Shown here: positions 11,643 to 51,479 of the stretch, in pieces
How positions within the stretch are numbered: position 1 is the first letter of the stretch
Layout: each line of letters begins with the position of its first letter
Virus record (IMG/VR): IMGVR_UViG_3300017722_002988
Span: 67,760 to 131,759 of that record
Direction: 5' to 3' (one strand)
DNA: 64,000 nt
Source: a virus
Taxonomy: Duplodnaviria > Heunggongvirae > Uroviricota > Caudoviricetes
Program-made: the position numbers and the translations under genes
Notes under the pieces: model-generated
Told to the model about the DNA's origin: nothing
The model's database searches: none
The model's input: the letters and a program-made list of their open reading frames with translations, nothing else

Positions 11643-11750
11643 GCTTAGCTCCTCTTACATTATCAATGTACACTTATAGGAAATGAAGTACACTGCCTTC
11701 TTAGCAATATTTATGTGTACATCATTTTCCTCGTGTCGTACATTGATAAA

Positions 11751-12395
11751 ATGAATCAGGACCGTTACAAGTACCCGAGCACGCCACACCTACCGTTGTC
11801 CAAAGGACGACAGTGGGATGACACCGCTCTTGACGGCTACGCAAACTTCATCGGCCACGAGGTCGTGATCACGGAGAAAATGGACGGTGAGAATGCTTCC
11901 CTTTACCATGACTACTATCACGCCAGATCCCTTGATTCTCGCCACCATCCTTCTCGTGATTGGATTAAGTCTTTTTGGGGTCGCGTTCGGTTTGACATTC
12001 CCGCCGGCTGGCGGTTCTGCGGTGAAAACCTCTACGCTGCTCACAGTGTCAAGTATGATTCTCTGCCTAGCTACTTTATGCTATTTAGCGTTTGGGGTCA
12101 TAACAATTATTCTCTGAGCTGGGATGAAGTCGAGTTCTGGGCAGATCTTCTGGGCATAGATACTGTGCCTGTCCTTTATCGTGGTCAATTTGACAAGACC
12201 ATCGTCGAGAAGATTGCTCGAGAACAGGATCCTGAGAAATCTGAGGGCTTCGTGATCCGGAATGCAGAGTCATTCCATTTTGATGACTTTGCCAAAAACA
12301 TGGGTAAGTACGTTCGAGTCAATCACGTACAAACCGACCAACATTGGATGTTCGCTGAGATCGTCCCAAACCAACTGAGAGACAGCAATGAGTGA
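11751..12395 (+). CDS. KxDG nucleotidyltransferase-superfamily ligase-like protein (putative RNA ligase)
   Basis: ITEKMDGENASL is a KxDG motif-I; start chosen at MNQDRYKY after the promoter box. Confidence 0.5.
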   Translation: MNQDRYKYPSTPHLPLSKGRQWDDTALDGYANFIGHEVVITEKMDGENASLYHDYYHARSLDSRHHPSRDWIKSFWGRVRFDIPAGWRFCGENLYAAHSVKYDSLPSYFMLFSVWGHNNYSLSWDEVEFWADLLGIDTVPVLYRGQFDKTIVEKIAREQDPEKSEGFVIRNAESFHFDDFAKNMGKYVRVNHVQTDQHWMFAEIVPNQLRDSNE

Positions 12396-14725: not shown

Positions 14726-15850
14726 GTGAAATACCAATTTCCTGTCATCAACACGATCAATGACGTCCTTCCGCACCTCGATGGTCGGAAGGAGTTTGTC
14801 GTTGCCAACCGTGGTGACCACATCATCATCAACTACGCCGTGGCCTTCGCCGACACCTTCTGTCCGGTGACAACTCTCGGCGACGCGATCCGTCGTGAAT
14901 GCCGTGGCTTGATCTTTGATGCCAAGACCGGCAAGATCATCCGCCGTCCGTACCACAAGTTCTTCAATGTGGGCGAAAAGGAAGAGACCGACCCCAAGAT
15001 CATCGATGAACTGATCGACGCCATCTCGCTCGAGAAGCTCGATGGTTCGATGATCGCTCCTTATCCGGCCGCCGACGGTACGCTCCGTTGGGGCACCAAG
15101 ATGGGTGACACCGACGTGGCCAAGATGGTTCTTCCGTTCCTAACCGCGAACTCGAACTATGTTCAGTTCGCTCAGGTCGCTGTAGAATGTGGCCTTACTC
15201 CGATCTTCGAATTTTGCTCGCGTCAGCAGCGGATCGTCGTGGATTATGAGACCGAGCGCCTCGTTCTGACTGCGGTCCGCCATATGGAATCAGGTGCTTA
15301 TGTTGGCTATGACGGCCTGTGCGCTCTGGCCGATTCGTGGAGCATCGATGTCGTTGGGACCCTGGAGTTCGACAAAAACGCTGTCGGCGTCGAGGGTGTG
15401 GTCATCCGCCTGTCGGACGGCCACATGGCTAAGATGAAGGCCGAGTCATACATGCGTATCCACAAGGCCAAGGACAAGATCACGGTTGAGAAGAATGCCG
15501 TGGACGCCATCCTGAACAACGAGATCGATGACCTTCTGCCTGAACTTGGTCAGGAAGACCGTGACCGTGTTGTGGCTCTTGATGTTGCTCTTCATCGGTT
15601 TTTGGACAGCCGCTCGAAGATGTTGGCTTTAGAGGTGGCTGAAGACGTGGAGCTCTTCAAGGATAAGAAGACTTACGCTCTTGAGGCTCAACGCCCACAA
15701 TATATCAAGGCGGCTGTTTTCAAGATGTGGGATGAGCCGGAAGGTGCTTACGAGTACCTTATGGCCCAACTCACCAAGAGCCTGGGTAAGGAAGTCAACT
15801 ACGCTGACTTCAAGCGCATGTGGGGCTTCGACTATGACTATTCTCAGTAA
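14726..15850 (+). CDS. rnlA: RNA ligase 1 (T4 gp63 / Rnl1 family)
   Basis: 374 aa, matching T4 Rnl1 length; motif-I-like EKLDGSMIAPY, EGVVIR and the C-terminal HMAKMKAESYMRIHKAKD resemble Rnl1. Confidence 0.75.
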   Translation: MKYQFPVINTINDVLPHLDGRKEFVVANRGDHIIINYAVAFADTFCPVTTLGDAIRRECRGLIFDAKTGKIIRRPYHKFFNVGEKEETDPKIIDELIDAISLEKLDGSMIAPYPAADGTLRWGTKMGDTDVAKMVLPFLTANSNYVQFAQVAVECGLTPIFEFCSRQQRIVVDYETERLVLTAVRHMESGAYVGYDGLCALADSWSIDVVGTLEFDKNAVGVEGVVIRLSDGHMAKMKAESYMRIHKAKDKITVEKNAVDAILNNEIDDLLPELGQEDRDRVVALDVALHRFLDSRSKMLALEVAEDVELFKDKKTYALEAQRPQYIKAAVFKMWDEPEGAYEYLMAQLTKSLGKEVNYADFKRMWGFDYDYSQ

Positions 15851-24152: not shown

Positions 24153-24226
24153 CCCGCCTTAGTGATAGCTGGTTAGCACGCTGGATTGTGGATCCGGTAG
24201 GCTGGGTTCGAATCCCAGGGGTGGGA
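24153..24226 (+). tRNA. tRNA-His(GTG)
   Basis: Anticodon arm CTGGA-TTGTGGA-TCCGG; T-arm CTGGGTTCGAATCCCAG. Confidence 0.55.
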
Positions 24227-24259
24227 CCATCTCATATATACTATGTAACATCAAATAAT

Positions 24260-29490: not shown

Positions 29491-30190
29491 AGATTGAGGC
29501 AGGGTGATGAACCCGTTAAGTCCTCCCAAGTTCGTGCTGCCGGGTTCGAAACCGCCAGTAAGAAGAAAGCGTCCTCCTGTAGGAACCCTCGAGGGAGATC
29601 GGGGTTGCGACTGTCGCAGGGAGGATGGGGTAAAAGTCCTCACGAGATCCCACCATTTCGCTCGAATGAGCAAACAAGATTGAATGAACGTGTGTGCGCA
29701 ACGGGCCACATGTAACCCTCGGTTGGGGTTCATTCATAAGATTGCCGTGTGCGGCAAAAGTCTGGGTAACCAGATGACAGGGAACGCCTCCCATAGGCCT
29801 CCCGACCTCTCCGGAGGGTAAAGCACACCGAACGGGCTACGAGAGGAGACTCTCGGCTTCATGTACCAATCATGGAGATACGTCCTAAGGATGGGAACTG
29901 AAAAGCCGGCCCCTAGCCGATGGTGGGGGGTTCTAACGGCAGGTCCGCAAGACCTAGGTTCACGCAAACCATTCTAAGACCGATGGCAAACGTTCAGAGG
30001 GTACCGCAAGTCCGAGGCCGCAACCAAGGGCAGGTATCATATCGATAGGAGACGGGCATACGGGCCGAAGGGTTCTGAGGAGACGTCATCTAGAAGATTT
30101 TTCGAGTAACTCGCAAGGTGAAAGGAATGAGTCGTGTTGCATTCTGTAGGGTAAAAGCCTTATGGAACAACTGGTCAAGCACGACTTGGT
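29491..30190 (+). ncRNA. large structured non-coding RNA candidate (about 700 nt) rich in C-GCAA-G hairpins
   Basis: No + strand ORF; recurrent CGCAAG GNRA-type hairpins (AGGTCCGCAAGACCT, CTCGCAAGGTG and others); promoter upstream. Confidence 0.4.
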
Positions 30191-30195
30191 GGGTT

Positions 30196-30267
30196 CCAAA
30201 CATAGCTCATTGGTAGAGCAATCGCATTGAACGCGATAGGCTGTGGGTTCGATCCCCACTGTTTATT
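30196..30267 (+). tRNA. tRNA with anticodon TGA (type I body); acceptor pairs only partially
   Basis: Canonical D-arm AGCTCATTGGTAGAGCA, arm ATCGC-ATTGAAC-GCGAT and T-arm GTGGGTTCGATCCCCAC. Confidence 0.5.
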
Positions 30268-30609
30268 TAAAAAAGCAAAGACTTGACCGAGAGTAAGTGT
30301 AAGAAGCCAAATGCCACAGCCGTAAGGTAATGTGGTCACTTGAAGCTCGCAAGGCGGACGGTGTTGATGTACGGAAGTTCGTAAGGGGTTAGCGCCCTTG
30401 AGTGGCTCGCAAGGTCAGCGGATGGAAAGATGTCGAGTAGCTTGCTCTGCATGTTGGATGGTCACCAACTCAAAAACGACTGGCTTTGATCGGATACCCT
30501 ATCATGTATATAGGTGTGGAGATCTAGGGAATATGCCGGGTCGCACTGGCAGAATAATCCTAGGAGACTGATCATTTAAGCGAGTAACTCTCATCGCTTT
30601 ACAAACGAT

Positions 30610-33919: not shown

Positions 33920-34801
33920 ATGCTACTCCACACTCTAGAAAAGGACAAGTTGATCTCGCCGCCTCGTTGGCTGCCAGACAACACCGCCTATCTGACCGCC
34001 ATGGGCTCTGTTGCTTATGGCGTCAGCGGCGACATGTCCGACGTGGACATCTACGGATTCGCTATGCCTCCTAAGGATATGGTGTTCCCACATCTGGCCG
34101 GCCATATCCCTGGTTTCGGTCCTGCACCTCCGAAGTTCGAGTGCTGGGAGCAACACCACGTTCAGGATAAGAGCGGTAAGAAGGAATACGATTTCCAAGT
34201 CTTCTCCATAGTTCGGTTCTTCCACCTTCTGGTCGAGAACAACCCGAACATGACTGACTCGCTCTTCACTCCGGATCGTTGCGTTCTGCATCAGACTCGA
34301 GTGGCTCAGCTGGTCCGTGAGAACCGGAAGCTGTTCCTGCATAAGGGTGCCTACCACAAGTTCCGTGGGTACGCCTATCAGCAACTCAAGAAGGTTCAGG
34401 CAAAGACGCCTTCCAATCCGAAGCGTCAAGCTCTGGTCGATGCCTATGGCTACGACACCAAGTTCGCCTACCACATCGTTCGCCTAGCGCTCGAGTGCGA
34501 GGAGATCTTGACTCAGGGTAATCTGACTCTGGACGCGAACGTGGCGGTTCTGAAGGCTGTCCGTGAAGGACAGTGGACTTTGGAGCGGCTTGAGCAGTGG
34601 TTCGAAGGTAAGGAACTGCAACTCGAGCAGGCCAAGATGGACTCTAAGCTTCCAGAAGGTCCGAACTATGACGTGATCAAAGTGCTGCTCTTGCAGTGCC
34701 TGGAACAACACTACGGCGATCTGTCCAAGGCCGTTGCCAAGGATAACGGTGGCCAAAATGTCATCAACGAGGTCCAGGCTGTTCTGGATAGATATAGGTA
34801 G
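33920..34801 (+). CDS. Pol-beta-superfamily nucleotidyltransferase
   Basis: GSVAYGVSGDMSDVDIYG is a GS...D(x)D nucleotidyltransferase motif. Confidence 0.6.
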   Translation: MLLHTLEKDKLISPPRWLPDNTAYLTAMGSVAYGVSGDMSDVDIYGFAMPPKDMVFPHLAGHIPGFGPAPPKFECWEQHHVQDKSGKKEYDFQVFSIVRFFHLLVENNPNMTDSLFTPDRCVLHQTRVAQLVRENRKLFLHKGAYHKFRGYAYQQLKKVQAKTPSNPKRQALVDAYGYDTKFAYHIVRLALECEEILTQGNLTLDANVAVLKAVREGQWTLERLEQWFEGKELQLEQAKMDSKLPEGPNYDVIKVLLLQCLEQHYGDLSKAVAKDNGGQNVINEVQAVLDRYR

Positions 34802-36532: not shown

Positions 36533-36606
36533 GCCTCTGTACTCCAACTGGCAGAGAGAGCAGGTCGAGAGCCTGTCCAGTGTCGGTTCGAATCCGACTA
36601 GGGGCA
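36533..36606 (+). tRNA. type-I tRNA with Leu anticodon GAG (A73)
   Basis: Acceptor GCCTCTG/TAGGGGC; arm GCAGG-TCGAGAG-CCTGT; T-arm GTCGGTTCGAATCCGAC; short variable loop. Confidence 0.5.
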
Positions 36607-36616
36607 CCAAAGTTTG

Positions 36617-36687
36617 TGCAGGTAGGATGCGGTATCCCACTCGGGCTCATAACCCTTGCTACGTCGGTTCGACTCCGACACCTGCTT
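36617..36687 (+). tRNA. initiator-like tRNA-fMet(CAT)
   Basis: Unpaired 1:72; three G:C pairs closing the anticodon stem (GGG/CCC); CTCATAA loop. Confidence 0.5.
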
Positions 36688-36695
36688 CATATAAT

Positions 36696-36769
36696 GCCTT
36701 TGTACCCCAACTGGTAGAGGGAGCGGTCTTAGAAACCGTACAGTGTCAGTTCGAATCTGACCAGAGGCA
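36696..36769 (+). tRNA. type-I tRNA with Leu anticodon TAG (A73)
   Basis: Paralog of 36533; arm GCGGT-CTTAGAA-ACCGT. Confidence 0.5.
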
Positions 36770-36787
36770 CCAATCAAGGAGACCAGC

Positions 36788-36937
36788 TTGAACCATAAGC
36801 GTGGAAAGCCTAAGAACGCCAGGAGCGGTTGCCTGATGTGCAAACCCTGGAAAGTCAATGGCTGCTGCATGGATAAGCACTCCGATGCTATAAGGAAAGA
36901 GTCTGCTAAGGATCAGATTCGTTTCATCTGCGAATAA
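36788..36937 (+). CDS. Cys-rich small protein (TTG start, 49 aa, not listed in the ORF track)
   Basis: AAGGAG sits 7 nt upstream of the TTG; CLMC...GCC...FIC. Confidence 0.25.
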   Translation: MNHKRGKPKNARSGCLMCKPWKVNGCCMDKHSDAIRKESAKDQIRFICE

Positions 36938-36938
36938 C

Positions 36939-37013
36939 GCCCCTGTAGTCCAACTGGCAGGAGACAGCGGTTTCAAAAGCCGCACAGTGTCGGTTCGAAT
37001 CCGACTGGGGGCA
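36939..37013 (+). tRNA. type-I tRNA with Leu anticodon CAA (A73)
   Basis: Cleanest member of the family: GCGGT-TTCAAAA-GCCGC arm, 5-nt variable loop, canonical T-arm. Confidence 0.55.
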
Positions 37014-37021
37014 CCAATAAC

Positions 37022-37096
37022 GCCTGAGTACTCCAACGGAAGAGAGCCCGGTCTTAAAAACCGTGGAACGTGTGGGTTCGAATCTCACCTTAGGCA
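37022..37096 (+). tRNA. type-I tRNA with Leu anticodon TAA (A73)
   Basis: Paralog; CTTAAAA loop. Confidence 0.5.
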
Positions 37097-37106
37097 CCAT
37101 TCTACA

Positions 37107-37185
37107 GCCCGCCTCCATGGGCAAATTGGCAAAGTCGCTGTGTTCAGATCGCAGAGTTTTCCCGGTTCGACTCCGGGTGGGGGCA
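37107..37185 (+). tRNA. tRNA-like with Leu anticodon CAG (A73) and an extended D-region
   Basis: Arm CTGTG-TTCAGAT-CGCAG; T-arm CCCGGTTCGACTCCGGG. Confidence 0.4.
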
Positions 37186-37240
37186 CATCGGCGTCAAATG
37201 CATAAATAGAGTAGAATCTATTTGCACGCGAGGCCCGCTA

Positions 37241-41853: not shown

Positions 41854-41925
41854 GCACCTATGGCCTAATGGTTAAGGCAGGGGTCTCTAAAACCTTGAAT
41901 CCGGGTTCGAGCCCCGGTAGGTGCA
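41854..41925 (+). tRNA. tRNA with anticodon CTA (amber-reading, suppressor-type)
   Basis: Perfect acceptor GCACCTA/TAGGTGC; D-arm GCCTAATGGTTAAGGC; arm GGGGT-CTCTAAA-ACCTT; T-arm CCGGGTTCGAGCCCCGG; CCA. Confidence 0.6.
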
Positions 41926-42181
41926 CCAAGTTTCAGTTTTCCCCTCAAGAGGGGAGATGGAGACCACAAAGGAGAGTGCTATCATGGACTAATCTGACTC
42001 TGTAGAGATAGAATGATTTTTGATAGATAAAGTTTAATTGGTAAGAACACCGTCCTCGAGACGAAAAGGAAAAAGATATGCATTCGTAGAATCGCTGTCA
42101 ACATGACCCTCCGTGATGTAAAGATCACATTACACTAAGACCACTTATGGTAACACCATCTTTACATTACGGAGACGTCAA

Positions 42182-45826: not shown

Positions 45827-46052
45827 GCTGACTGACGAGGAAGAAAAGTTCCTCCATATCATGGCACGTAAGATCTACCCGACCGCTTGGGGTGCTGGTT
45901 CTTTTTATACAGAGAACCATCAAGCTACAGCGGTCGGGCATGTTCGTGCTGCTTTCTTGGATGCCTGCAAAGGATCCAATGTGAAAATCACTCGAAAGAG
46001 AAAGACTAAACCATGTCGCCCATCTACGAAACCATCAAAAGAGACAGCCTAA
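45810..46052 (+). CDS. hypothetical protein
   Basis: Coupled ORF. Confidence 0.4.
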   Translation: MSLDIRLTDEEEKFLHIMARKIYPTAWGAGSFYTENHQATAVGHVRAAFLDACKGSNVKITRKRKTKPCRPSTKPSKETA

Positions 46053-46453
46053 CCGCCCGCAAAGCCGGCGACAAGGCTACAGCATCCCTTCTTGTTACTC
46101 TAGCGTCTGAGATTCAGGCAGCAGGTAGATCTGTTGAAGAGCGTGAGAACCCGTCGAACGATGTGGCTATCGCTACGATTAAGAAGTTCATTAAGAACGC
46201 TTACATCACTGTGGAAGCTAATAAAAACAGCAGAGACAGGGAGACGGCTGCAATGCGAGAAGTTGAGATTTTGGAATCGTATCTGCCTAAGCAGCTAACC
46301 GAAACCGAAATCAAGGTGATCATCGCTGGGCTCAAGGCTAAGCCTGGCGAAGCCAACATCATGGAACCCACCATGGGTAACATTATGGGGTATTTCAAGA
46401 CGATGTATCCTGGGCGATACGACGGAGCTTTGGTAGCCAAGCACGCCAGATAA
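46013..46453 (+). CDS. GatB/YqeY-domain protein
   Basis: EILESYLPKQLTETE...MGNIMGYF...GRYDGALVAKHAR matches the YqeY pattern. Confidence 0.65.
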   Translation: MSPIYETIKRDSLTARKAGDKATASLLVTLASEIQAAGRSVEERENPSNDVAIATIKKFIKNAYITVEANKNSRDRETAAMREVEILESYLPKQLTETEIKVIIAGLKAKPGEANIMEPTMGNIMGYFKTMYPGRYDGALVAKHAR

Positions 46454-47297: not shown

Positions 47298-47373
47298 GCG
47301 TCCGTATCGGAACCGCCTTCTAAGCGGTAGTACCGTAAGTGGAACGATGGGGGTTCGAGTCCCTCCGGGCGCG
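47298..47373 (+). tRNA. tRNA-like (anticodon TCT) lacking a D-arm, with a long variable region
   Basis: Acceptor GCGTCCG/CGGGCGC; arm ACCGC-CTTCTAA-GCGGT; T-arm GGGGGTTCGAGTCCCTC; only about 5 nt between the acceptor and anticodon stems. Confidence 0.4.
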
Positions 47374-47383
47374 CCATATTTCT

Positions 47384-47468
47384 GGACGAGTTGGACAATT
47401 GGTTGGTCCGCGGGACTCTTAATCCCGTTCGCGAAAGCGGCTTGTGGGTTCGAACCCCACCTCGTTCA
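47384..47468 (+). tRNA. type-II-shaped tRNA with Lys anticodon CTT
   Basis: Acceptor GGACGAG/CTCGTTC; D-arm GGACAATTGGTTGGTCC; perfect arm CGGGA-CTCTTAA-TCCCG; 16-nt variable arm with a GAAA tetraloop. Confidence 0.5.
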
Positions 47469-47472
47469 CCAT

Positions 47473-47542
47473 CCAGCCGTAGTGTAGGTTTGCACGGCAC
47501 CCATTTGGGGGTGTTAGACTAGGTTCAACTCCTAGCGGCCGG
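47473..47542 (+). tRNA. tRNA-like with a 6-nt anticodon loop
   Basis: Acceptor CCAGCCG/CGGCCGG; CACCC-ATTTGG-GGGTG; T-arm CTAGGTTCAACTCCTAG; CCA. Confidence 0.35.
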
Positions 47543-47741
47543 ACCAAGACCCGTCCTAAGGATTCTGTGGGACGTTAAATCACTAGGAATCGGGCTTTCT
47601 CTCCTTTGCCTTAAGAAAGGAGACTGGAATCAGCCTAGAAGAGCTGGTCGAAGTCCCGTAATGTGGCACCGCCTCCGTCCGGGCGACCCTCGCAAAGGGT
47701 TAAGAGATCGGCATGGTAACCGAAATCAGGCTTCCAATTTA

Positions 47742-47825
47742 GGACGCGTCACCTCAGCAGCGAGAGGCCGGGCCTTTTAAGCCCACGGAGAAATCCCATC
47801 GGGGGTGCGAGTCCCTCCGCGTTCA
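47742..47825 (+). tRNA. type-II-shaped tRNA with Lys anticodon TTT
   Basis: Acceptor GGACGCG/CGCGTTC; CTTTTAA loop; variable arm GGAGAAATCC (GAAA tetraloop); T-arm GGGGG-TGCGAGT-CCCTC. Confidence 0.45.
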
Positions 47826-47969
47826 CCAAATTTGATGCGGACCACCTCGGACGTGGTTGCCAAGTCTGGCCAGACGGTAGAAGCCCTCGGCCGAGGGCGG
47901 ACACTTATAAAGTGATTTGGGTAGGTGGTTCGAATCCGCCCACTTTGATGGCAACGCATCAACTCATTC

Positions 47970-48042
47970 GGGTTCATAGCTCAATGGCGTAGAGCAGCGG
48001 GTTTTTACCCCGTAGATCTCGGTTCAAATCCGAGTGGACCCT
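47970..48042 (+). tRNA. tRNA-Lys(TTT), canonical type I
   Basis: Acceptor GGGTTCA/TGGACCC; D-arm GCTCAATGGCGTAGAGC; arm GCGGG-TTTTTAC-CCCGT. Confidence 0.75.
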
Positions 48043-48082
48043 CCAGATAAATAAGACAGAACCCTCAAAGCAGAGAAGCAAA

Positions 48083-50384: not shown

Positions 50385-50422
50385 GGTGTACTTAATTACC
50401 AATCGTTATAGTATGAGAATAT
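50385..50422 (+). promoter_or_regulatory. phage promoter motif
   Basis: GTGTACTTAATTACC, then TATAGTATGAGAATATGAC. Confidence 0.5.
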
Positions 50423-51479
50423 GACAATGATCAAATTTCCTTCCATCGAGCAGCTGCGGACGGTCGTAAAGAACGTCCAGCACCAGTCTCGATTTGCCGG
50501 TGTCGATGACACCGGGGAGCCCATCTTTGACAGCACTCGGCCCATCCCGACCCTTCGGTTTGTTGGCACGGTGAAGCTACATGGCACAAACGCCGGTATC
50601 GTTCTGGATCGTACCGGAACTGACTTCATCTACCAGTCCCGTGAGCGTGTTCTGACTCTTGAAGCTGACAACGCTGGTTTCATGGCCCATATGCAGGCTA
50701 ATCAGGACAGCGTCGATACGCTGTTCGCAACTGTCATGCTGCAGATTGAAGATCTCGACTCAGTCAAGTTCATCTGCATCTACGGCGAATGGTGTGGCGG
50801 AAACATTCAAAAAGGGGTCGGCATCTCCGGTCTTCCCAAGATGTTTGTGGTGTTCGGTATCAAGGTCATCTACGAGACTGACGATGACGGCTCCGAAGGT
50901 GTGTGGATTCCGGTTCAAAACATCCAATACGAAGACAAGGATGCTGGCATCTACAATGTCCATCAGTTCGGTTCTTGGACGATCGACATCGACTTCAACC
51001 ATCCCCAACTGTCTCAGCCCAAGCTCATCGAGCTGACCGAGATGGTTGAGGCTGAGTGCCCTGCCGGCAAGTTCTTCGGAAACACTGGTATCGGCGAGGG
51101 CATCGTCTGGCACTGTGAAGAGCCTGGCTTTACCTCTAGCCGCCTGTGGTTCAAGGTGAAGGGCGAGAAGCACTCTGTCTCCAAGGTCAAGACGCTGGCT
51201 CCGGTCGATGTTGAGGCCTACAAGAAGCAGCAGGACTTCATCGACTCTGTCGTGACCGAAGCTCGGCTGGAACAAGGCATTCAGAATCTCATCAACGAAC
51301 AGCAGAAGCCGTTCGAGATGGCGTCCATGGGTGACTTCATTCGTTGGGTCTTCAATGACATCGTCAAGGAAGAGACTGACACAATCGAGGCCAACGGCTT
51401 TGACTCTAAGAAGCTCGGTGGTCCTATTGCCAATAAGGCACGGCCCTGGTTCATTCAGCGGCTGAACAGCGAAGGTTAA
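50421..51479 (+). CDS. rnlB: RNA ligase 2 (T4 Rnl2 family)
   Basis: Motif I KLHGTN (T4 Rnl2 has KIHGTN); IYGEWCGGNIQKGVGI resembles VFGEFAGPGIQKNVDY; FVVFGI resembles FYVFDI; 352 aa. Confidence 0.75.
   Translation: MTMIKFPSIEQLRTVVKNVQHQSRFAGVDDTGEPIFDSTRPIPTLRFVGTVKLHGTNAGIVLDRTGTDFIYQSRERVLTLEADNAGFMAHMQANQDSVDTLFATVMLQIEDLDSVKFICIYGEWCGGNIQKGVGISGLPKMFVVFGIKVIYETDDDGSEGVWIPVQNIQYEDKDAGIYNVHQFGSWTIDIDFNHPQLSQPKLIELTEMVEAECPAGKFFGNTGIGEGIVWHCEEPGFTSSRLWFKVKGEKHSVSKVKTLAPVDVEAYKKQQDFIDSVVTEARLEQGIQNLINEQQKPFEMASMGDFIRWVFNDIVKEETDTIEANGFDSKKLGGPIANKARPWFIQRLNSEG

Follow-up and report, generated by a model that had tools for sequence, protein, structure and literature searches.

Predicted phage lysine tRNAs with a class II-like extra arm, in a T4-like phage and in many other phage sequences

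Three lysine tRNA genes of different architecture

We analyzed a 64,000-nucleotide stretch of viral DNA (Caudoviricetes; positions 67,760 to 131,759 of IMG/VR record IMGVR_UViG_3300017722_002988), here called the window, with a focus on three lysine tRNA genes at its positions 47384 to 48045. As usually taught, a long variable arm in bacteria is limited to tRNA-Leu, tRNA-Ser, tRNA-Tyr and the selenocysteine tRNA (tRNA-Sec). Two of the three genes, W1 and W2, combine lysine anticodons with an extra arm, and the third has the ordinary type-I shape. The genes, their anticodons and their variable regions are as follows.

47384..47471, + strand: W1, tRNA-Lys(CUU) with an extra arm; 88 nt including the encoded CCA (ARAGORN, Rfam and minimum free energy (MFE) fold)
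47418..47420, + strand: anticodon CTT of W1, in the loop CTCTTAA (C32, U33, A37, A38)
47428..47443, + strand: variable region of W1, TTCGCGAAAGCGGCTT, 16 nt
47742..47828, + strand: W2, tRNA-Lys(UUU) with an extra arm; 87 nt including CCA (Rfam, our own covariance model, homologues and MFE fold)
47776..47778, + strand: anticodon TTT of W2, in the loop CTTTTAA
47786..47800, + strand: variable region of W2, CGGAGAAATCCCATC, 15 nt
47970..48045, + strand: type-I tRNA-Lys(UUU), 76 nt with CCA (ARAGORN, Rfam at 68 bits, and fold)

W1 and W2 have the same acceptor end (G1-C72, G2·U71, A3-U70 and A73), acceptor and T helices of 7 and 5 bp, a 7-nt anticodon loop with U33 and A37, and an encoded CCA. The acceptor stem of W1 is GGACGAG/CTCGTTC, its D arm GGAC-AATTGGTTG-GTCC, its anticodon arm CGGGA-CTCTTAA-TCCCG and its T arm GTGGG-TTCGAAC-CCCAC. 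The variable region comprises one unpaired nucleotide, a stem of 4 bp (TCGC/GCGG) capped by a GAAA tetraloop, and a 3-nt tail (CTT); U48 is able to pair with A15. W2 has the acceptor stem GGACGCG/CGCGTTC, a 3-nt connector (TCA), the D arm CCTC-AGCAGCGA-GAGG, the anticodon arm CGGGC-CTTTTAA-GCCCA and the T arm GGGGG-TGCGAGT-CCCTC. Its variable region consists of one nucleotide, a stem of 3 bp (GGA/TCC) that a GAAA tetraloop caps, and a 4-nt tail, CATC, the commonest tail in the family described below. The D loop of W2 contains no GG (there is no G18G19) and its T loop, TGCGAGT, has G55; the gene thus has A18/G55, together with G15:C48.

The Rfam tRNA model (RF00005, gathering score 29) detects W1 at 47384-47468 with 50.9 bits and W2 at 47742-47825 with 35.7 bits. 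ARAGORN reports W1 as an 88-nt Lys(ctt), CCA included, and does not detect W2. The MFE folds of both are five-arm cloverleaves with a variable-region hairpin (UCGC-GAAA-GCGG and GGA-GAAA-UCC), with weak z-scores (-1.7 and -0.85). By length and shape (a variable region of more than 10 nt that forms a stem-loop) both genes are class II, and by isotype (Leu, Ser, bacterial Tyr and Sec) they are not, having the anticodons CTT and TTT. Both have the YUU anticodon of tRNA-Lys, with U35 and U36, and both have A73 and G2·U71, the acceptor features of tRNA-Lys for class-II and class-I lysyl-tRNA synthetase (LysRS), respectively. No close paralogue of W1 or W2 was found among the window tRNAs after removal of the variable hairpin (best scores about 20/73).

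An initial annotation, made from the sequence alone, had described class II-shaped tRNAs with lysine anticodons here, with 15-16-nt variable arms closed by GAAA tetraloops. Rfam, parsing of the arms and the MFE folds bear out both statements: the regions of W1 (16 nt) and W2 (15 nt) fold as hairpins. The annotation considered both anticodon stems perfect, which holds for W1; in W2 a C27·A43 mismatch leaves four stem pairs. Its gene starts stand, and the ends that it gave (47468, 47825 and 48042) lie 3 nt further on, with the encoded CCA. The neighboring tRNA-Lys(TTT), which it took to be normal, is type-I in shape but not otherwise normal: it has a TTTTTAC anticodon loop (U32, C38), a 4-nt variable loop and U73, together with G2-C71.

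Long-arm tRNA-Lys in cultured phages and metagenomes

When the region was compared by BLAST with cultured phages, W2-like sequences turned up, unannotated in GenBank and missed by ARAGORN, in five Brevundimonas jumbo phages. A further 25 records, most of them of phiCbK-like Caulobacter phages, hold others that are annotated plainly as tRNA-Lys. In phiCbK, an 88-nt Lys(CTT) gene and a 91-nt Lys(TTT) gene (gt008/gt009) stand side by side, directly upstream of its Leu genes, and these are the only Lys genes in the tRNA block examined, which holds 22 of its 26 annotated tRNA genes. The arrangement in CcrRogue, Gurke, Kikimora and CcrBL9 is similar. The phiCbK genome paper lists the tRNAs and does not remark on their shape (PMC3556154). 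Ruegeria phage V10 encodes an 88-nt Lys(CTT) with the variable arm TGC-GAAA-GCA-CACC, and a 642-kb uncultured phage record contains three long Lys genes. Bacteroidetes hosts were predicted for huge-phage genomes of about this size (PMC7162821); the 642-kb phage is presumably among those genomes and would then have a predicted Bacteroidetes host.

The Brevundimonas jumbo phages also have an unannotated Lys(TTT)-like gene (for example L001:3110-3193; in L088 and L089 it lies just after the long Lys(CTT)). It has a GGACCAC/GTGGTTC or GGGGACC-type acceptor stem with G2·U71, and its extra hairpin, CCGG-GTGG-CCGG, is in the D-arm region and not in the variable region.

Metagenomic members were found through a D-arm pattern, all within tRNA arrays. 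They include CTT and TTT tandems on a 218-kb contig and copies on two contigs binned to Chthoniobacter metagenome-assembled genomes. A Pfam search of these two contigs found nothing diagnostic of their context; they are tRNA arrays. We also searched IMG/VR for CTCTTAA with GGTTCGARYCC 21-31 nt after it, a spacing that demands a long variable region, and found at least 119 loci, many on contigs of 100-476 kb. Among the matches listed, ARAGORN finds 118 tRNA-Lys genes of at least 81 nt, with Lys(TTT) often adjoining Lys(CTT). Together with the other loci they give a pooled set of 117 distinct long-arm tRNA-Lys (at least 117 in total), which is biased by the long-variable-region pattern used to choose it and from which no frequency can be derived.

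Relatives of W1 are present among the IMG/VR matches listed, for example at L126, L147, L160 and L174, which share its D arm (TT-GNGC-AATTGGTTG-GCNC), T arm and CTT tail. Two further loci, L197 and L216, hold pairs with the exact acceptor signature of the window genes, and one TTT copy there has the A18/G55 elbow of W2. In 80 loci around relatives of the window phage identified by their family-B DNA polymerase (PolB), none of the eight Lys genes has a long arm, and two contigs near-identical to the window phage end short of the tRNA region. Four relatives of the window phage (L048, L071, L060 and L078) have a tRNA-Ser with U73 instead of the usual G73, one with the anticodon ACT. An exact D-arm pattern with A18 gave four matching loci in IMG/VR, all of them chance matches in non-tRNA sequence, and a full pattern of acceptor, anticodon and acceptor, too specific a query, gave no match there.

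Judged by these searches, long-arm tRNA-Lys is a widespread predicted phage design, present in well over a hundred other phage sequences. We found no description of a long-arm phage tRNA-Lys in the open literature and preprints (subscription journals lay outside this coverage).

Conservation of the fold and of the extra arm

We aligned 16 W2-type members and counted their cloverleaf base pairs. Standard pairs occupy 97.4% of the cells, and 15 of the 23 pairs have changed on both sides; none of 500 shuffles was as good, and slid controls were 37-50% paired. The 7/5 acceptor and T helices are present in 16/16 aligned relatives. Covariance-model analysis, which the initial annotation had proposed as a check, supports both genes: they score above the Rfam gathering threshold, and the model built from this alignment gives 93.4 bits for W2 and 44.7 bits for W1. 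Because a covariation-supported family is found elsewhere, we interpret the genes as more than a chance cloverleaf.

In the pooled set, the variable region is most often 15 nt long, with a stem of 3-5 bp (3-4 bp in 102/117) and 70 distinct stem sequences. The cap is a GNRA tetraloop in 74/117, of which 49 are GAAA, and the commonest tails are CATC and CACC. A stem of at least 3 bp occurs in 112 of the 117 (mean of 73 and maximum of 83 after shuffling of the variable region), and the 74 GNRA-capped hairpins compare with a shuffled mean of 0.7 and a maximum of 4. The anticodon loop is CTYTTAA in 115/117. The discriminator is A in 75 and U in 40 (40 with U73 among the 116 scored), and G2·U71 is found in 7/116.

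D-loop position 18 and T-loop position 55 covary (alignment A2, columns 18 and 75; window positions 47759 and 47807). Ten of the 16 aligned members have G with T and six have A with G (W2, Kabachok, L091, L097, L104:4942 and L106). Also with A and G are L104:4846 and L216, which are outside the alignment, and a mixed state was never seen. Alternation of A18/G55 with G18/U55 looks like a compensated tertiary pair. On the evidence of these comparisons, the extra arm on phage tRNA-Lys is a recurrent design that selection has apparently preserved, on two or more bodies.

Other class-I isotypes in the phages with long-arm tRNA-Lys, among the IMG/VR matches listed (L113-L229), can also have a mini-hairpin with a GNRA cap in the variable region: 11/44 tRNA-Asn, 8/71 tRNA-Thr and 6/55 tRNA-Ile do, as well as a small number of Gln, His, Trp, Cys, Pro, Met and Arg genes. 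Examples are L210 (Asn), L162 (Ile(TAT)), L223 (Thr/Glu) and L209 (His/Trp). At L104:5635-5725 there is a 91-nt Ile(TAT) gene.

Genomic setting

The source phage is T4-like, as predicted from its gene content. The window encodes a gp43-type family-B DNA polymerase, a gp45 clamp, a gp44/62 clamp loader and RegA, as well as a UvsX/RecA-like protein, a gp41/DnaB-like helicase, gp30.3, dCMP deaminase and thymidine kinase. The closest cultured relative of the DNA polymerase is that of Sinorhizobium phage phiM12 (44.6% identity). From about 23.7 kb to 48 kb of the window, ARAGORN finds 38 tRNA genes, every one of them on the + strand. Predicted genes of the RNA-repair type are unusually many in this phage and include three RNA ligases. 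These genes, and a YqeY-domain gene near the Lys cluster, are listed here.

14726-15850: Rnl1-type ligase
11715-12395: PF09414 ligase, with an adjoining metallophosphatase gene
50421-51479: Rnl2-like ligase
33920-34801: RlaP nucleotidyltransferase, inside the tRNA array
46013-46453: YqeY-domain protein, just upstream of the Lys cluster

No aminoacyl-tRNA synthetase was found among the 50 window open reading frames scanned. The window tRNA-His (24153-24229) has C1-G72 and A73 and lacks G-1:C73. It resembles the tRNA-His of Caulobacterales phages, and the shared A73 and missing G-1 hint at an alphaproteobacterial host; the His genes in the Chthoniobacter-binned arrays, unlike it, have the canonical G-1:C73. 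In Caulobacter, class-I LysRS is the sole LysRS (PMC1475646). These features of the predicted tRNA-His and the LysRS class of Caulobacter are consistent with an alphaproteobacterial host with a class-I LysRS.

Three other elements lie close to the long-arm genes. A tRNA-like gene at 47298-47376 (Rfam, 37.3 bits) has a perfect acceptor stem (GCGTCCG/CGGGCGC) and an encoded CCA. Its anticodon loop is CTTCTAA (TCT, Arg AGA) and its variable region measures about 17 nt; the D arm is almost missing, and the MFE fold does not give a cloverleaf. The one at 47473-47546 (37.7 bits) begins 2 nt past the end of W1 and has A73, CCA and an abnormal anticodon loop of 6-8 nt containing TTT; ARAGORN reports it as 'tRNA-?(Lys|Gln)(tt)'. 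A structured RNA lies at 47829-47962 (about 134 nt); a long helix (TTGATGCG/CGCATCAA) plus TTGCCA/TGGCAA closes it. Inside it is a T-arm-like GGTGG-TTCGAAT-CCGCC, and part of it is 'Tyr(ata)' according to ARAGORN. It matches no Rfam family and has an MFE of -50.7 kcal/mol (z = -1.8).

Elsewhere in the window, a GOLLD RNA is found at 30129-30597 (Rfam RF02032, 173.5 bits); inside it, at 30196-30267, is a tRNA-like element of 72 nt that ARAGORN calls Ser(tga). A well-formed tRNA at 41854-41928 has the anticodon CTA, of the amber-suppressor type (Rfam, 65.4 bits; labeled 'Pyl' by ARAGORN).

Amino acid identity

W1 and W2 most likely insert lysine, because AAG and AAA encode catalytic lysines in the window phage: K104 of Rnl1 motif I is AAG and the Walker-A K68 of the RecA-like protein is AAA. 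A tRNA that read these codons with another amino acid would be harmful. Lys codons make up 7.7% of the 7450 window codons sampled. The near-invariant CTYTTAA loop and the retention of both CTT and TTT isoacceptors across distant phages are as expected for true Lys decoding.

U35 and U36 serve as determinants for LysRS of either class; LysRS-1 cannot do without G2-U71, which is an antideterminant for Escherichia coli LysRS-2, and A73 is marginal for LysRS-1 (PMC9976931). The G2·U71/A3-U70/A73 end shared by W1 and W2 corresponds to the signature of class-I LysRS. A Brevundimonas phage copy and the pairs at L197 and L216 have the same acceptor end as W1 and W2, and its presence on two different bodies suggests that W1 and W2 may be tailored to one synthetase. 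We also considered that the extra arm might be tolerated only in hosts with a class-I LysRS. The cultured hosts of phages with long-arm Lys genes (Caulobacter, Brevundimonas and Ruegeria) fit this idea; the three copies in the 642-kb phage, the Chthoniobacter-binned copies and the rarity of G2·U71 weaken it.

Origin of the bodies and the short tRNA-Leu genes

W2-type bodies resemble bacterial-type tRNA-Tyr. A tRNA-Tyr(GTA) at locus L100 has a D arm (TCACCTCAGCGGCGAGAGG) identical to that of the W2 type, a 15-nt variable region ending in CATC, and A73. One IMG/VR long Lys gene is 78% identical, over 95% of its length, to a Bacillus-phage tRNA-Tyr with the variable arm CC-GAAA-GG. Since A73 and U35 are common to Tyr and Lys identity, one could be turned into the other by two anticodon changes. 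W1 is different: it has a Leu-like D loop (AAUUGG) and A15:U48, and its BLAST matches are mostly fragments of phage tRNA-Leu. For 114 long Lys genes, the best-matching isotype was Tyr in 27, Ser in 25, short Lys in 22, Leu in 13 and Asn in 13, in a comparison set that held only 38 Tyr genes. A single tRNA-Tyr origin of all long Lys genes is unsupported by these mixed matches.

The five tRNA-Leu genes of the window (GAG, TAG, CAA, TAA and CAG; 36533-37186) depart from their isotype in the opposite direction. Bacterial tRNA-Leu is normally long-armed, and these genes have type-I length (74-75 nt without CCA), with a 4-5-nt variable region ending in T (A15:U48). They have A73, A14, G18G19 and the Leu-type D loop AACTGGCAGA. 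Since the Leu-type D loop, A15:U48 and A73 are kept, we interpret them as Leu bodies minus the arm. Many other phage arrays have short Leu genes too. Long Lys genes occur together with short Leu genes in 30/56 loci, and short Leu genes occur in 3/7 loci without long Lys; from this comparison, with its tiny control group, we see no association. The initial annotation had proposed a systematic swapping of anticodons and bodies between the Lys and Leu sets. This is not supported: neither Lys gene is like any other window tRNA (best scores about 20/73), the short Leu genes have Leu and not Lys bodies, and co-occurrence shows no association.

Proposed role and alternative explanations

Our preferred interpretation, to which we give a probability of about 0.6, is that W1 and W2 are working lysine tRNAs (CUU and UUU) of a widespread, phage-specific long-arm design, for which we infer a role in evading host defence. 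In this design the 7/5 cloverleaf is normal, as is the anticodon loop for a tRNA-Lys, and the variable region holds an inserted hairpin, short and stable, of 3-5 bp, usually capped by GAAA or another GNRA tetraloop and followed by a 3-4-nt tail. Under established identity rules, host LysRS would charge W1 and W2 via U35 and U36, and in the window phage it may also read the shared G2·U71/A3-U70/A73 end. The extra arm would make the phage tRNA-Lys structurally unlike the type-I tRNA-Lys of the host, and long-arm tRNA-Lys could then stay usable while host defence nucleases or toxins deplete the host tRNA-Lys pool. It would complement the RNA ligases of the phage and its third Lys tRNA, the type-I Lys(UUU) with the altered loop.

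tRNA-Lys is, as the initial annotation had stated, a favored target of such nucleases: it is cleaved by PrrC (PMC11555353; PMC10264068) and by bacterial Schlafen (PMC13056530), and phage tRNA-Lys rescues infection from PrrC (PMC11555353). RloC and PARIS are also reported as tRNA-Lys-targeting defences. That W1 and W2 are nuclease-insensitive substitutes is plausible, and the idea gains from the several RNA-repair genes that the window phage also carries. This phage keeps three structurally different predicted Lys tRNAs, two altered in the body and one in the loop.

Several points weigh against the proposed role. PrrC can act on the anticodon stem-loop alone, so the arm need not protect, and we know of no nuclease that a variable arm stops. 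In published cases, evasion depends on changes in the anticodon loop or on abundance (PMC10264068), and the anticodon loops of W1 and W2 are canonical (C32...A37 A38). The pooled set was chosen by the very feature at issue. The class-I LysRS argument is local to the sub-family of W1 and W2, as G2·U71 is rare and the design reaches a phage with a predicted Bacteroidetes host. Some mischarging is possible: A73, A14, A15:U48 and G18G19 are elements for E. coli leucyl-tRNA synthetase (LeuRS), for which the arm is dispensable (PMC9976931), and W1 has this whole set, while W2 has A73, U35 and G1-C72, the main determinants of tyrosyl-tRNA synthetase (TyrRS; PMC9976931). Finally, descent from tRNA-Tyr or tRNA-Leu could have left the arm behind as an entrenched relic.

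This last point is the main rival, in our opinion unlikely. A phage tRNA-Tyr (W2 type) or tRNA-Leu (W1 type) would have been recruited to Lys codons by anticodon mutation, and the arm would persist only since the class-II core was built around it, with no role in defence. The tRNA-Tyr(GTA) at L100, with its identical D arm, CATC tail and A73, speaks for this, as do the 78% identity to a Bacillus-phage tRNA-Tyr, the 27/114 best matches to Tyr despite the few Tyr genes compared, and the position of long Lys genes directly upstream of Leu genes in Caulobacterales phages. What a mere relic explains poorly is that the hairpin is kept by compensatory change over 70 stems with strongly enriched GNRA caps, that the arm sits on at least two unrelated bodies (the W1 and W2 types) and also on Asn, Thr and Ile tRNAs, and that arms are removable, since the same arrays hold armless tRNA-Leu. 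The mixed best isotypes (25 Ser, 22 short Lys) also leave a single Tyr origin unestablished. If the class-II body were charged instead by LeuRS, TyrRS or seryl-tRNA synthetase (SerRS), so that Lys codons were partly misread, the identity elements listed above, the AAUUGG D loop of W1, its BLAST matches to phage tRNA-Leu fragments and the Tyr-like body of W2 would be accounted for. LeuRS and SerRS largely ignore the anticodon and TyrRS tolerates anticodon changes, and the nematode nev-tRNAs include a Lys(CUU) that is leucylated through A73 and the variable arm (PMC3333845). We consider such misreading improbable given the catalytic lysines of Rnl1 and RecA at AAG and AAA codons, the 7.7% share of Lys codons, and the CTYTTAA loop and CTT/TTT pairs conserved across distant phages. 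The variable stems of 3-4 bp are also shorter than those of bacterial tRNA-Ser. U73, present in 40/116 members, abolishes Leu and Tyr identity (PMC9976931), and the helices are 7/5, not the 8/4 or 9/3 reported for allo-tRNAs (PMC5389517).

The initial annotation had raised the idea of decoys, in which the long-arm Lys tRNAs would soak up a tRNA-Lys-specific nuclease or toxin and not be used in translation. Their canonical anticodon loops would leave them potentially cleavable, and the neighboring tRNA-like genes with aberrant loops (47473-47546 and 47298-47376) could fit such a role. For W1 and W2 we think it very improbable and do not retain the suggestion: the features needed for charging and ribosome use are all conserved, both isoacceptors are kept, and in the phiCbK block (22/26 genes) the long-arm genes are the only Lys tRNAs. 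Hardly credible at all is that W1 and W2 are degenerate genes or chance cloverleaves. W2 is missed by ARAGORN and has a mismatched anticodon stem, no G18G19 and G55 in place of U55, and the MFE z-scores are weak; yet both genes score above the Rfam gathering threshold, covariation is strong across the family, and A18/G55 recurs always together, as expected of a compensated tertiary pair and not of decay.

Beyond W1 and W2, it is a tentative thought, which we regard as doubtful, that phages systematically reshape tRNA architecture, giving tRNA-Lys (and more rarely Asn, Thr, Ile and other tRNAs) a mini-arm with a GNRA cap and deleting the arm from tRNA-Leu, so that these tRNAs would be hidden from host immune nucleases and toxins that read shape in addition to the anticodon. 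If true, this would be immune evasion at the level of the tRNA body, distinct from anticodon-loop mutation and from repair by ligases.

What is new here is a predicted class-II architecture on phage tRNA-Lys; already known are the genes themselves in cultured phages, annotated merely as tRNA-Lys. The long-arm tRNA-Lys breaks the isotype rule for variable arms and occurs in cultivable model phages such as phiCbK on Caulobacter. Because tRNA-Lys is a substrate of PrrC and bacterial Schlafen, a reshaped phage tRNA-Lys is a concrete candidate for a new counter-defence principle. The design also bears on how both LysRS classes tolerate an extra arm and on the evolution of tRNA identity by Tyr- or Leu-to-Lys recruitment. 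There is an annotation issue as well, as W2 and the Brevundimonas copies are missed by ARAGORN, and the long-arm scaffold might serve in the engineering of orthogonal tRNAs.

Comparison with known systems

The tRNA-Lys genes of phiCbK (gt008/gt009), CcrRogue, CcrBL9, the Brevundimonas phages and Ruegeria phage V10 belong to the same family as W2. The phiCbK group shares with W2 the D arm (TC-ACCTC-AGYRGCGA-GAGG), the pairing of CTT with TTT, the encoded CCA and the layout of the variable region (1 nt, 3-5 bp, a tetraloop and a CAYC tail). It differs in having mostly U73, G2-C71 and G18/U55, whereas W2 has A73, G2·U71 and A18/G55, and these phages are jumbo siphophages, whereas the window phage is T4-like. 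Bacterial-type tRNA-Tyr shares with W2-type bodies the D arm, a short variable stem with a tetraloop, G1-C72, A73 and U35. The W2-type anticodon is, however, YUU and not GUA, most relatives of W2 have U73, and the W1 type is unlike tRNA-Tyr.

Among defence-evading phage tRNAs, the T5-type tRNA-Lys that acts against PrrC170 and PARIS and the loop-mutant phage tRNAs (PMC11555353; PMC10264068) are likewise kept beside RNA-repair enzymes, in phages exposed to immunity that targets tRNA. These rely on abundance or on changes in the anticodon stem-loop, whereas W1 and W2 have the standard loop C32-U33-N-U-U-A37-A38; among the window Lys genes, loop changes (U32, C38) are confined to the type-I copy at 47970. 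In the literature on defence-evading phage tRNAs we found no mention of an added variable arm as an evasion device.

Allo-tRNAs are, like W1 and W2, associated with bacteria and phages and combine a variable arm with an anticodon mismatched to the body type. They are reported to have 8/4 or 9/3 acceptor/T helices (PMC5389517) and to bind SerRS via the variable arm (PMC7590224); W1 and W2 are 7/5, with variable stems of 3-4 bp, and fall outside this group. The nematode nev-tRNAs (Gly, Ile, Arg and Lys anticodons; PMC3333845) similarly have a long arm with the anticodon of a class-I isotype, Lys(CUU) included, and the A73 of W1 and W2 matches a nev-tRNA identity element. The nev-tRNAs are eukaryotic, cluster with tRNA-Leu, are leucylated and are weakly expressed (PMC3333845). 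Phage Lys arms, in contrast, are shorter, many of these tRNAs have U73, and the evidence favors lysine identity.

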